From positions 25,110,001 through 25,174,000 of the forward strand of contig NC_135899.1 in assembly GCF_964194155.1 (NCBI RefSeq): DNA of 64,000 bases, given 5' to 3'. Made by a program: the position numbers and the translations under genes. Below, in pieces: positions 16,353 to 27,283 of the stretch. Positions within the stretch are counted from its first letter, which is position 1. Every line of letters starts with the position of its first letter. The notes under the pieces are model-generated. The model saw only the letters and a program-made list of their open reading frames with translations, had not been told where the DNA came from and did no database searches. This DNA comes from Cetorhinus maximus. Its lineage: Eukaryota.

Positions 16353-16945
16353 GGATTGCTGCATTGTTCCAGTGAAGCTCAACGCAAACTGGAGGAACAG
16401 CACCTCATCTTCCGACTAGGCACTTTACAGCCTTCCGGACTGAATATTGAGTTCAACAGCTTTAGATCTTGAACTCCCTCCTCCATCCCCACCCCCTTTC
16501 CGTTTCTTCCCCCTCCCTTTGGCTTTTTCCAATAATTTATATAGATTTTTATTTTCCCACCTATTTCCATTATTTTTAAATCTATACCTTTTATGCCCTG
16601 TTAGTCTTATTTCACCCCACCCCCACCAGAGCTGAACCTTGTGTGTCCTGCCATCCATTCTTAATTAGCACATTTTCTTAGATAATATCACCACCTGCAA
16701 CACCTCTTTGTACCTTTTGTCTGTGACATCTTTTGATTACCTGCTCCTATCACTGCTTGCTTGTCCCTACAACCACCCCCCACGCACCCACCCACCCACC
16801 TTAAACCAGCTTATATTTCACCCCTCTCCTAATTTTACTCAGTTCTGTTGAAGGGTCACGAGGACTCGAAACGTCAACTTTGTTCTTCTCCGCCGAAGCT
16901 GCCAGACCTGCTGAGTTTTTCCTGGTATTTCTGTTTTTGTTTTCA
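16353..16945 (+). mobile_element. Penelope-like element 3' end, second family
   Basis: LLHCSSEAQRKLEEQHLIFRLGTLQPSGLNIEF (GIY-YIG C-terminus), followed by a pyrimidine-rich pLTR with a hammerhead motif. Confidence 0.8.
16841..16879 (+). ncRNA. Minimal type I hammerhead-ribozyme motif (variant core CUGUUGA)
   Basis: AGTT-CTGTTGA-A-GGGTC-acgag-GACTC-GAAA-CG-TC-AACT: stem I AGTT/AACT, stem II GGGTC/GACTC, palindromic stem III ACGT. Confidence 0.65.
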
Positions 16946-16989
16946 ATTTCCCGGGCTTGGTGGGGTTTAGTTCCGGGATCGAAATCCAT

Positions 16990-17149
16990 CCAATATGAAC
17001 GCAAAGAAGCAACCAATCATCTTCGGCCATTGAACGATAAGAACCAGCCAATCAGCTGGCGGTACTTGTTGCACCAATCAGGTGCCGTTTGTATCTGACC
17101 AATCAGCGATGTAGTGTCGGCTGCAGGCGGCGGACTGGACTCTATAAAA
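16990..17149 (+). promoter_or_regulatory. Histone H3 promoter: five CCAAT boxes plus TATA
   Basis: CCAAT at 16990, 17013, 17048, 17074 and 17099; TATAAAA at 17143-17149. Confidence 0.85.
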
Positions 17150-17205
17150 GGAGCAGCAGCGGCAGCTTCGCTGTAGTTTCGGGAGGATCCCAGAGGAGGA
17201 GTTAA

Positions 17206-17616
17206 ATGGCGAGGACCAAGCAGACAGCCCGCAAATCCACCGGGGGGAAAGCTCCCCGCAAACAGCTGGCCACCAAGGCGGCTCGCAAGAGCGCCCCGGC
17301 CACCGGCGGCGTCAAGAAGCCGCACCGCTACCGGCCCGGGACCGTGGCTCTGCGGGAGATCCGCCGCTACCAGAAATCCACCGAGCTGCTCATCCGCAAA
17401 CTGCCCTTCCAGCGCCTGGTGCGGGAGATCGCCCAGGACTTCAAGACCGACCTGCGCTTCCAGAGCTCGGCCGTCATGGCCCTGCAGGAGGCCAGCGAGG
17501 CTTACCTGGTGGGGCTCTTCGAGGACACCAACCTGTGCGCCATCCACGCCAAGCGGGTCACCATCATGCCCAAGGATATCCACCTGGCCCGGCGGATCCG
17601 GGGAGAGCGGGCCTGA
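17206..17616 (+). CDS. H3: Histone H3 (H3.2-type, replication-dependent) with Q125H
   Basis: 136-aa [13 protein letters not shown]...; A31, SAVM 87-90, S96; KDIHLA instead of KDIQLA; intronless, with stem-loop. Confidence 0.99.
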
Positions 17617-17675
17617 GTTAAAACAACCCATTCCCCCCCCACCCCACCCCCAAAAATACAACTCAACACAGCAAC

Positions 17676-17691
17676 GGCTCTTTTCAGAGCC
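17676..17691 (+). terminator. Histone 3' stem-loop with purine-rich downstream element
   Basis: GGCTCTTTTCAGAGCC then ACCAC, with AAAAGAAAGA at ~17703-17712. Confidence 0.95.
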
Positions 17692-18751
17692 ACCACATCA
17701 GTAAAAGAAAGACAAAAATTTAGACGTTAAATCCTAAAACTTTAGGGTCCTTGTTCCTCAGGCTGAAAAGGCATTTTCTCATTCAGCCTTGCTCATTGAT
17801 CAAATTTCTGTATATTGTAAGGCCCCGCCCCGCCTGCATTGTTCTATCATTTTTATCTCGTAAATCTTATGCCCCTTGGTGGCAGTTTTCTATTTCAGAG
17901 CCACCACATCAGCAAATGATTGCCGTTAGGCATCGGATAACTTCGAGCCGCATCCATATTAAGGCGGTGGGTGTCCCTAAGACTTAAAGGGACATAATTT
18001 CTCATCCAGCTTTGTTCCATCTTCCAATGAAATGGCTGATCTGCACCCAAATCTCCCGCCTGCTTTGCGCACACTTTTTATCTTTGCCTCAAATCCCCTA
18101 CTGAGCTCACTTACTAAAATGTCAGCTGCTTATTTTTGGAATGAGCTTCCAAGAAATGTTTGTTACCTTGGCTTTCGAATGTTGTTGCTGTGAAACCCAA
18201 TCCACGCACCCACCTTCTGCCCCCTCCCGCCCCACCCCACCAGTGCAGGAAAAGTTTGCATCTATCCTAAGGTTTCCTTTCAAAATTGTAAAGTCTTGAA
18301 TACTCCCTGTGTGAATTCTGGCCTCGGACTGCTCATTGTGAATGACAGGTCCACACTTTCTACCATCTCCTTGCATGAAGAAATGTTGATTTGAAGGTTA
18401 TGTCCCCTTGACCCGGGTCTTCAAAGTGTAAGCACACTTTCCCATTCAACCCTCTTTCACCATTCAGTAAGCTCGTGACTGATCTGTTACATAACCCCAT
18501 CTTTTCATCTCTTTGCCAAAACTCTTATTAACTTTACCTTTAAACTTATACCACTTTTTGTGTGAAGAAGGAGAACACTTCTTCCTCTGCCTGAATATGT
18601 CTTTCCTCATTTCACTCCTGAAAGGCCTGGTCCTGATTCTGAACTTGACGTGAGAAACGAGACCAAATGTCCCATTTCACAAATGGAACAGGATTATCAT
18701 TCTTCACTGTTCTGACTTCAGTGAGATATTGACTGATCCGTAACTCCATCC

Positions 18752-19258
18752 TGGTCGCCACATTATAGGAAGGATGTGATTGCACTGGGAAGGGTGCAGT
18801 GGAGATTCACCAAGATGTTGCCTAGGCTGGAGGGTTTCAGCAATGTAGTGAGGCTAGATAGGCTGGCGTTGTTTTCCTTAGAGCAGAGAGGGGAACCTGA
18901 TAGAGGTATACAAAATTATGAGGGGCATAGATAGGGTAGATAGAAAGAAACTTTTCCCCTTAGCAGAGGTGTCAATAACCAGGGAACATAGATTTAAGGT
19001 AAGGAACAGGAGGTTTAGAGGGGATTTGAGGAAAAATCTTTTCACCCAAAGGGTGTTGGAATCTGGAACTCACTGCTGAGGGGGTGGTAGAGGCAGGAAC
19101 CCTCACAACATTTAAGAAGTATTTAGATGAGCACTTGAAACGCCATAGCATACAGGGCTACTGGCCAAGGGCTAGAAAATGGGATTAGAATAGATAGGTG
19201 CTTGATGGCCAGCACGGACAAGATGGGCCAAAAGGCCTGTTTCTGTGCTGTATAACTT
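18752..19258 (+). mobile_element. CR1 3' fragment
   Basis: Close match to the reverse complement of 4400-4920. Confidence 0.85.
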
Positions 19259-19489
19259 GCCTTGGTTCCACATCTTTATATTCCCTTTAGTGGAAGATAT
19301 TTCAAACTTTTACCATTCAGGGTAAAGAAATATTGCCTAATTTCTCTTCCTGGTTATGTCCAGGTTAGATTCAGCTGGATTTGGAGCTTTGCATCCAATT
19401 CTGGGCACCATACCTTAGCAGGTAGGAAGGAGATTTACTATAATTACATCAGAAATAAGGGATTTTAGTTATTCAGAGAAACTCAAGTA

Positions 19490-25680: not shown

Positions 25681-26200
25681 CATTAGCCATTTTGTATTAC
25701 CAACATTCAGCTGTTAAGACCACGTTTAAGACAAATTCAATTTAATTCAAGACTCTGAATTGAAGTGGTTTCCTTGCAGCCATGGTAAAATGGTTTAGGG
25801 AATTTCTCCTGTTGCAGCAACCAAGAAGCAACAAGCCAACAGAGCAGAACCAGGGCCCTGATACCAACTGAGACAATTTGACATTCAATAGCATTACCGC
25901 CGCCAAATCTATTAACACCCTGGGAGTTTTTTAAAAATTCATTCATAGGATGTGGGCATCACTGGCTAGGCCAGAATATAAATTGCCCATCTCTAATCAC
26001 CCTTATTCAGGGGGGCATTTTTGTTCTAAAGTCACATGTATGTAACTAAGGACAGATTTCCTTCCCTGAAGGATAATTGAACCATTGACCAGAAACTACA
26101 CCAAGCCATACAAGTACTGCAACTACAATAGGCTATGAACCGAGCAATTCATCTCCTGCCCTCCCAAAACGTGTCAACTTTGTCCTTTTACTGATGTGGT

Positions 26201-26216
26201 GGCTCTGAAAAGAGCC
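26201..26216 (-). terminator. Histone 3' stem-loop of the second H3
   Basis: GGCTCTGAAAAGAGCC on + equals GGCTCTTTTCAGAGCC on -. Confidence 0.95.
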
Positions 26217-26275
26217 GTTGCTGTGTTGAGTTGTATTTTTGGGGGTGGGGTGGGGGGGGAATGGGTTGTTTTAAC

Positions 26276-26686
26276 TCAGGCCCGCTCTCCCCGGATCCGC
26301 CGGGCCAGGTGGATATCCTTGGGCATGATGGTGACCCGCTTAGCGTGGATGGCGCACAGGTTGGTATCCTCGAAGAGCCCCACCAGGTAAGCCTCGCTGG
26401 CCTCCTGCAGGGCCATGACGGCCGAGCTCTGGAAGCGCAGGTCGGTCTTGAAGTCCTGGGCGATCTCCCGCACCAGGCGCTGGAAGGGCAGTTTGCGGAT
26501 GAGCAGCTCGGTGGATTTCTGGTAGCGGCGGATCTCCCGCAGAGCCACGGTCCCGGGCCGGTAGCGGTGCGGCTTCTTGACGCCGCCGGTGGCCGGGGCG
26601 CTCTTGCGAGCCGCCTTGGTGGCCAGCTGTTTGCGGGGAGCTTTCCCCCCGGTGGATTTGCGGGCTGTCTGCTTGGTCCTCGCCAT
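26276..26686 (-). CDS. H3: Histone H3 (H3.2-type) with Q125H, second copy
   Basis: Protein identical to 17206-17616; two synonymous differences seen (GAC/GAT, GCC/GCT). Confidence 0.99.
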
Positions 26687-26742
26687 TTAATCTCTCCTCT
26701 GGGATCCTCCCGAAACTACAGCGAAGCTGCCGCTGCTGCTCC

Positions 26743-26902
26743 TTTTATAGAGTCCAGTCCGCCGCCTGCAGCCGACACTACATCGCTGATTGGTCAGATA
26801 CAAACGGCACCTGATTGGTGCAACAAGTACCGCCAGCTGATTGGCTGGTTCTTATCGTTAAATGGCCGAAGATGATTGGTTGCTTCTTTGCGTTCCTATT
26901 GG
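26743..26902 (-). promoter_or_regulatory. H3 promoter (TATA plus five CCAAT), second copy
   Basis: Mirror of 16990-17149. Confidence 0.85.
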
Positions 26903-27012
26903 ATGGATTTCGATCCCGGAACTAAACCCCACCAAGCCCGGGAAATTGAAAACAAAAACAGAAATACCAGGAAAAACTCAGCAGGTCTGGCAGCTTCGGC
27001 GGAGAAGAACAA

Positions 27013-27051
27013 AGTTGACGTTTCGAGTCCTCGTGACCCTTCAACAGAACT
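27013..27051 (-). ncRNA. Duplicate of the minimal hammerhead motif
   Basis: Exact reverse complement of 16841-16879. Confidence 0.6.
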
Positions 27052-27132
27052 GAGTAAAATTAGGAGAGGGGTGAAATATAAGCTGGTTTAAGGTGGGTGG
27101 GTGGGTGCGTGGGGGGTGGTTGTAGGGACAAG

Positions 27133-27283
27133 CAAATGGCACCTGATTGGTGCAACAAGTACCGCCAGCCGATTGGCTGGTTCTTATCGTTCAATGGACG
27201 AAGGTGATTGGTTGTTTCTTGCGTTCCTATTGGATGGATCTCGATCCCGGAACTAAACCCCTCCAAGCCCGGGAAATTGAAAA
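27133..27283 (-). promoter_or_regulatory. Displaced, more diverged duplicate of the H3 CCAAT array (no TATA or CDS)
   Basis: Direct repeat of ~26802-26951 with several substitutions; lacks the Penelope insertion upstream. Confidence 0.85.

Follow-up and report, generated by a model that had tools for sequence, protein, structure and literature searches.

What kind of locus holds two H3 genes and a single divergent H2B gene, with no H2A, H4, or H1 gene beside them? Such an arrangement is found in the stretch of 64,000 nucleotides (nt) from Cetorhinus maximus analyzed here (contig NC_135899.1, below C22, positions 25110001 to 25174000; "the window"), in which two H3 genes, H3a and H3b, lie in inverted arms and enclose an H2B gene. 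A first-pass annotation had proposed a dedicated module for a specialized nucleosome, possibly of the germ line or early embryo. The window carries an intact H3(Q125H)-H2B variant-H3(Q125H) cassette. In the reading that our results make reasonably probable, this cassette likely predates the divergence of sharks and rays, likely resides on the MHC (major histocompatibility complex) chromosome, and likely supplies variant histones to the germ line or early embryo, with the H2B weakening its contact with H4 as TSH2B does.

Architecture of the cassette and its two variant proteins

The inverted arms are each 951 nt long, lie 8477 nt apart, and mismatch at 7 of 951 positions (99.3% identity), in agreement with the near-identical 951-bp arms about 8.5 kb apart that had been noted before. 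The spacers measure 3816 nt (H3a to H2B) and 4465 nt (H2B to H3b), and masking assigns 44% and 52% of the two half-spacers to repeats. The observed/expected CpG ratio (CpG o/e) is 0.79 to 1.07 in genes and promoters versus 0.33 in the spacers. The features are as follows.

16353-16951 (no strand): interspersed repeat of ~600 bp, whole on the a side, with 9 further copies whose alignments pass the arm boundary at 16757
16757-17707 (+): arm a, apparent donor copy, with 184 nt of the repeat, the H3 promoter, H3a, the 3' untranslated region (UTR), and the stem-loop
16952-17205 (+): H3a promoter and 5' UTR, with five CCAAT boxes, TATAAAA at -63, and a CpG o/e of 0.85
17206-17616 (+): H3a, intact, canonical H3 with Q125H
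17676-17691 (+): histone 3' stem-loop of H3a
21385-21400 (-): histone 3' stem-loop of the H2B variant
21433-21810 (-): H2B variant, single-copy, elasmobranch
21811-21965 (-): H2B promoter, with a TATA-like box, an octamer, and two CCAAT boxes; contains the arm midpoint, 21946
26185-27135 (-): arm b, apparent recipient copy, ending within a truncated repeat element
26201-26216 (-): histone 3' stem-loop of H3b
26276-26686 (-): H3b, same protein as H3a, with 2 synonymous differences
27136-27283 (-): outside the arm, the distal H3 promoter once more, at 94% identity and with four CCAAT boxes; read as the older, displaced distal promoter of H3b
2295-2714 (+): flank, C-type lectin exon of a multidomain lectin gene (three more such exons upstream), a synteny anchor
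34960-41261 (+): flank, TRIM gene (RING, B-box, PRY-SPRY), a synteny anchor in sharks

Each of the three genes is an intact, intronless open reading frame followed by a hairpin with a 6-bp stem and a 4-nt loop (-9.3 kcal/mol; z of -3.7 to -4.4). The hairpins match Rfam Histone3 with E values of 1e-6, 2e-6, and 3e-3 and scores of 33.7, 33.1, and 24.3, all below the gathering score of 34. CCAAT and TATA boxes in H3 genes and octamers in H2B genes are typical promoter motifs of replication-dependent histone genes; here, the H3 promoter carries the five CCAAT boxes and TATAAAA listed above, and in the H2B promoter the octamer sits at -92 and the TATA-like box at -75, beside the two CCAAT boxes. 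The earlier description of three intact genes with class-typical promoters and stem-loops is therefore upheld by reading frames, motifs, and folds. The replication-dependent feature that is absent is clustering with other core classes. No match to H2A, H4, or H1 was obtained by tblastn with this genome's own proteins in the window plus 100 kb per side (264 kb), which extends the same observation made for the 64 kb; no fourth histone stem-loop was found in that span, and no remnant of an H2A or H4 gene was found in window positions 10000 to 36000. Judged from these features, the three genes would behave as replication-dependent histone genes save for clustering, with mRNAs that would arise in S phase and terminate at the stem-loop. 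A second hairpin at 17893 to 17919 was rejected: these 27 nt duplicate in part the end of the H3a stem-loop and what follows downstream, and they do not adopt a histone-hairpin fold.

H3a and H3b encode an identical protein, whose sole difference from the canonical H3 of this genome is Q125H. Among the best 150 scored of 418 candidates in the genome, 3 matches, each of them on C22, show full identity to the query; the others lie mostly in clusters on contigs C32 and C39, where the copies that were read carry Q125. The cassette genes are thus not the bulk histones of this species, which supports the first-pass annotation. The third H3(Q125H) gene, at C22:2.826 Mb, differs from H3a by 22 synonymous and 0 replacement changes, and the exact Q125H protein is present on 16 NCBI contigs. 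Q125 belongs to helix 3 of H3, and Q125R is a recurrent change in a disorder of human H3.3 (PMC7821880). Among the five alignments listed, none was to a solved H3 structure that carries H125, and our literature search found no paper on Q125H in histone H3. The substitution may be only a mild change.

The H2B variant differs from replication-coupled H2B by nine changes in the fold (S38G, I69V, E71D, G75C, N84S, K85R, S87H, I89M, and L102V) and is single-copy, with no other match above 83% identity among 150 scored. In a tree of 43 rows chosen by hand, which left out the H2B named v3 from a sister cluster (see below) and mammalian H2B.1, it falls in a clade of 19 rows from 11 sharks and 8 batoids (support, 98/97). 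Apart from the Cetorhinus protein, the clade consists of 18 named orthologues, taken from 8 batoids and 10 further sharks. I69V, G75C, S87H, and L102V are fixed in 19/19 members; position 84 is S in 16 and T in 3, versus N in 12/12 control rows; and the 11 sharks hardly differ in the fold. Among the best 120 of 7991 scored candidates, neither a chimaera nor a bony-vertebrate member was found, an absence that weakly suggests a clade restricted to elasmobranchs. E71 sits at the H2B-H4 interface. As reported in the portion of PMC3976059 available to us, replacement of N84 by Ser in TSH2B loses water-mediated bonds to R78 of H4 and is the sole change that alters nucleosome structure, and TSH2B also departs from the canonical protein at position 75. 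By analogy, the H2B variant likely makes a looser dimer-tetramer contact with H4.

Probable arm conversion, synteny, and chromosomal setting

The repeat element that is whole at the boundary of arm a is cut at that of arm b, which none of its copies crosses, and the end of arm b is joined to the older promoter copy through a 3-nt microhomology. The simplest reading is a one-way copying scar, in which a repair event copied arm a over H3b and displaced the old promoter outward. Such a conversion from a to b would explain the 99% identity of the arms. Conversion between the arms would recur, with this as its last event, and would keep an old H3 pair young-looking. With gene-bearing palindromes the locus shares a directional conversion footprint and, if the sawfish locus described next is orthologous, arms that are far more alike than their age implies.

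Rows for sawfish chr34, the MHC chromosome of that species, in the supplement of PMC10751288 list a mannose-receptor-like gene (+), an H3-like gene (+; 6163986 to 6164396), a "late histone H2B.L4-like" gene (-; 6168494 to 6168871), and an H3-like gene (-; 6172804 to 6173351). The H2B.L4-like row agrees with the sawfish orthologue of our clade in name, gene length, and chromosome; the lectin-type gene beside the triple is the same as in Cetorhinus; and the gaps are 4097 and 3932 to 4069 nt, against 3816 and 4465 nt. Because the H3(+)/H2B(-)/H3(-) order and the ~4-kb spacing beside the same lectin gene are shared, the cassette is likely older than the shark-ray split, provided that the two triples are orthologous. 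That split took place about 250 to 300 million years ago. The orientation of H2B relative to the lectin gene is the same in Cetorhinus, in sawfish, and probably in white shark, and in zebra shark the accessions of the H2B and TRIM orthologues are 3 apart, a weak sign of synteny. The sheet for the reedfish MHC chromosome holds no named histone at 36 to 338 Mb, the span that contains vars1 and ddr1. Although histone genes are in its supplement, the word "histone" is absent from the main text of PMC10751288.

A sister cluster lies on the same chromosome at C22:2.51-2.84 Mb (2508000 to 2566000 and 2786000 to 2840000). All histones found there are noncanonical, with stem-loops: three H2A genes that share one type, H4 genes of two types and H2B genes of four, many H1 genes, and the third H3(Q125H). 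Identical proteins occur on 13 NCBI contigs for the H2A and on 23 and 6 for the H4s. These are the nearest known H2A and H4 genes to the cassette, 22.3 Mb away with the stretch between unscanned, and the H2A and H4 partners of the cassette histones would come from this cluster or from the canonical pool. Of the proposed dedicated module, what stands is that the variant genes lie apart from the bulk histones; what does not is that the cassette is self-contained, given the third H3(Q125H) and the variant H2A, H4, H1, and H2B of the sister cluster. Intronless HSP70 genes follow the sister cluster, as on the sawfish MHC chromosome, and this order, together with the shared contigs of the H2B and TRIM orthologues, suggests that C22 is likely the MHC chromosome. 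One H2B of the sister cluster, at 2.565 Mb, shares just 58% identity with the canonical protein, and a sister-cluster H2B variant has dispersed copies with near-intact frames on three other chromosomes. On large chromosomes, six H2B copies of canonical type stand alone, without a further histone within 10 kb, and are probably retrocopies. A small unplaced contig (C1548:4180-6322) carries DDR-like exons and may belong near the window, as DDR precedes the lectin gene in sawfish.

Processed copies and the weighing of explanations

A search with the 3' end of H3a (best 40 of 171 candidates scored) revealed 8 dispersed processed copies of the cassette H3, on 7 other contigs, that match into the cassette's own 3' UTR. 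Four start in the 5' UTR (at -11 or -30) and four within the coding sequence; all 8 stop before the stem-loop, none carries a promoter, 7 keep the His codon at position 125, and 4 end at an A-run. The four long copies side with H3a over the third H3(Q125H) gene (14 to 16 versus 3 to 4 diagnostic sites) and are 6 to 8% diverged at non-CpG sites. A type-neutral pattern gave 166 matches in all (91 listed on C32 and C39, and 66 unlisted), among which the dispersed matches listed on C1 to C31 comprise 4 of cassette type and 2 of canonical type. The excess of cassette retrocopies per gene corresponds to a binomial P of ~4e-7 to 2e-6 if the yield per gene were equal. One canonical-type processed copy lies at C19:34.649 Mb, and a dispersed Q125 match at C18:39650747 could be H3.3. 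It has been argued that heritable processed copies require mRNA in germ-line or pre-germ-line cells (PMC8857922, available part). The promoterless copies of the cassette H3 mRNA therefore suggest that the H3 pair is likely transcribed in such cells, and that these genes are likely active in the germ line. On this reading, the cassette would provide variant histones where germ-line or early embryonic cells divide; the H2B variant would be expressed in the cells that express the H3s and would weaken the contact with H4. Two read sets that we guessed to be RNA gave, among the pieces listed on the spacer, only repeat-derived ones.

A number of observations weigh against this reading. None of the 8 copies is flanked by a convincing target-site duplication. 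In the cassette H3 UTR, an A5 run stands in place of the A3 of canonical UTRs, and internal priming at this run may lift the number of retrocopies even if expression is no higher. Dividing germ cells read S-phase histone genes of every kind. Genome searches found no retrocopy of the H2B variant, and this gene also has no A5-type run; germ-line activity of H2B is thus proposed by analogy, and the suggested germ-line or early-embryo role has genomic evidence, from processed copies, for the H3 pair but not for H2B. H125 occurs in 23 of the best 120 H3 hits, a query-biased list, one of them from Dictyostelium, which points to a residue tolerated in other eukaryotes. The sawfish triple is known from annotation rows, so that H125 in its H3s is at most putative, and its downstream neighbor is IER3, not TRIM. 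In the white shark list, no short genes lie next to the probable H2B row (LOC121291275, identified by accession offset with an uncertainty of ~2); in the catshark list, 0 to 61 Mb contain no +/-/- triple. Gene rows in both lists are unnamed, such that loss, rearrangement, and missing annotation look alike. The synteny expected from the first-pass annotation, H3-H2B-H3 between lectin and TRIM genes, is therefore found in sawfish on its lectin side but not on its TRIM side, and the triple itself is not seen in the other two lists. Searches for the DDR family and for MHC class II gave no placement on C22, the latter with no match anywhere, controls included.

How far do other explanations account for the locus? 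It could be an ordinary orphan mini-cluster of replication-dependent genes, read in every dividing cell, that escaped homogenization through isolation and whose proteins work canonically. We consider this unlikely. In its favor, S-phase promoter motifs and stem-loops are textbook, H3 differs by one tolerated residue, no H2B retrocopy was found, and the A5 run can account for the retrocopy excess by internal priming, as set out in the accessible part of PMC5322556. Against it, nine fold changes in H2B, four of them fixed in 19 species, and a near-invariant fold in 11 sharks suit a selected, distinct protein better than drift. Q125H has also persisted through 22 synonymous changes, and C22 holds further variant proteins that are conserved, an H2A found on 13 contigs and H4s found on 23 and 6. 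A more far-reaching proposal, which we entertain only tentatively, is an unnamed but complete elasmobranch germ-line nucleosome kit in the MHC, comprising variant H2A, H4, and H1 together with H3(H125) and an H2B akin to TSH2B; it would be independent of the mammalian testis variants, its palindrome under selection since before the shark-ray split and H2B held central. A recent inverted duplication or an assembly artifact without deep history is largely refuted and very improbable. The 99.3% identity of the arms and the white shark and catshark lists without two H3 genes at the site would suit it, but the same triple is seen in sawfish, the older 94% promoter copy lies beyond arm b, and a short-read contig supports the junction between spacer and arm b. 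This contig has 0 differences, falls one base under the bridging criterion, and may stem from the assembly's own sample; it extends 30 nt into arm b and ends there, as expected of a two-copy repeat.

Symmetry itself might matter. The arm midpoint, 21946, does fall in the H2B promoter in this genome, between the two CCAAT boxes and 136 nt upstream of the ATG, as first noted. Taken strictly, a central promoter region would co-regulate all three genes for one H3(H125)-H2B variant nucleosome, and the arms would let the H2B segment flip. H2B is indeed central in both species despite the repeats in the half-spacers, with offsets of -324 nt in Cetorhinus and +14 to +82 nt in sawfish (P of 0.08 and of 0.003 to 0.02 under uniform placement, post hoc and not independent). 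At the probable catshark site, the probable lectin gene is followed by two short, unnamed genes of its strand, separated by 13.6 kb; a flipped H2B could account for this. Against such a model, and also against the cassette reading in its original form, the sawfish midpoint lies 200 to 270 nt inside the H2B coding region rather than in a promoter. Moreover, every gene has its own full promoter, H2B orientation is constant as described above, a flip would leave the three genes intact with no obvious effect, and the H3 genes left retrocopies where H2B left none. Inverted similarity of the spacers does not exceed controls (14/40 and 23/40 score as high), its few matches being repeat copies, and an ancient whole-spacer palindrome was rejected on this ground. 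We therefore regard strict symmetry as improbable: the sawfish midpoint and the lack of spacer symmetry indicate that the exact promoter position is chance, the coincidence that had been allowed for from the start, while the roughly central H2B appears to be inherited geometry.

Other elements of the window were also noted. A 33-bp minisatellite family forms short arrays at 20816 to 21030 and 27712 to 27894, in and beside the cassette, and a 4-kb array (30196 to 34530) before the TRIM gene. At 23259 to 24545, a LINE-like fragment of ~916 nt lies inside another repeat, many genomic copies of which skip 23360 to 24277. A second TRIM gene was seen as well, followed on one strand by an IgV exon and a PRY-SPRY exon that likely form a butyrophilin-like gene. 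Positions 54257 to 63774 hold retroelement-like fragments in several direct and inverted copies (89 to 97% identity), interleaved with simple-repeat arrays.

Comparison with known histone systems

In RefSeq, these genes are automatically annotated as "histone H2B 7-like," "late histone H2B.L4-like," and "histone H3-like"; the elasmobranch models are the same genes, under names that do not flag one orthologous variant lineage. Our literature search, which did not extend to subscription papers, found no description of a shark or elasmobranch H2B variant or of the cassette.

HIST3 is a small mammalian histone cluster with the testis H3.4/H3t, beside TRIM genes. The cassette resembles it as a few stem-loop histone genes off the main cluster, near TRIM and butyrophilin-like genes, with a germ-line H3 isoform in HIST3; it differs in that its H3 has only Q125H, it lacks H2A, and its H3 genes form an inverted pair, and orthology is not implied. 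Diagnostic residues of H3.3 or H3.4/H3t away from position 125 are likewise absent from the cassette H3. In elasmobranchs, the locus places histone genes amid those of the MHC class I/III region, which bears on the age of the histone-MHC linkage; it is also a palindrome of histone genes whose conversion scar can still be read. Taken by itself, the H3 substitution is a modest one, although the disease variant Q125R is recurrent in human H3.3 (PMC7821880).

The processed copies resemble the tailless histone retropseudogenes covered in the available part of PMC5322556, which derive from nonpolyadenylated histone mRNA, end in the 3' UTR, and are ascribed to internal priming. Those were described for therian L1, with target-site duplications, whereas the Cetorhinus copies show no convincing ones.

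H2B.K is the one H2B variant older than mammals in the survey of PMC8857922, whose available text mentions "shark" once. Like the shark H2B, it is an old vertebrate variant with changes around loop L2, and its germ-line expression was argued partly from retrocopies. According to the same text, the H2B.K gene is interrupted by an intron, encodes a polyglutamine tract, and carries a poly(A) signal; the shark H2B has neither intron nor polyglutamine tail and would end at a stem-loop rather than a poly(A) site. The likeness to mammalian H2B.1/TSH2B, as far as the accessible parts of PMC3976059 and PMC8857922 describe that variant, includes an intronless gene, a stem-loop, a near-canonical fold, slow evolution, Ser at N84, and a changed position 75. 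In contrast, the shark and ray lineage further has E71D, S87H, I89M, and L102V, no H2A partner gene nearby, and H3 genes on both sides. It also lacks the mammalian clade, the synteny, and the divergent H2A.1 partner of H2B.1, its clade consisting of elasmobranchs only. By the features tested, the cassette genes are none of H2B.K, H2B.1, H3.3, or H3.4, and the N84S likeness to TSH2B is likely convergence. A second pre-mammalian H2B lineage that reached N84S independently would suggest that the germ line repeatedly resorts to a looser contact between H2B and H4.

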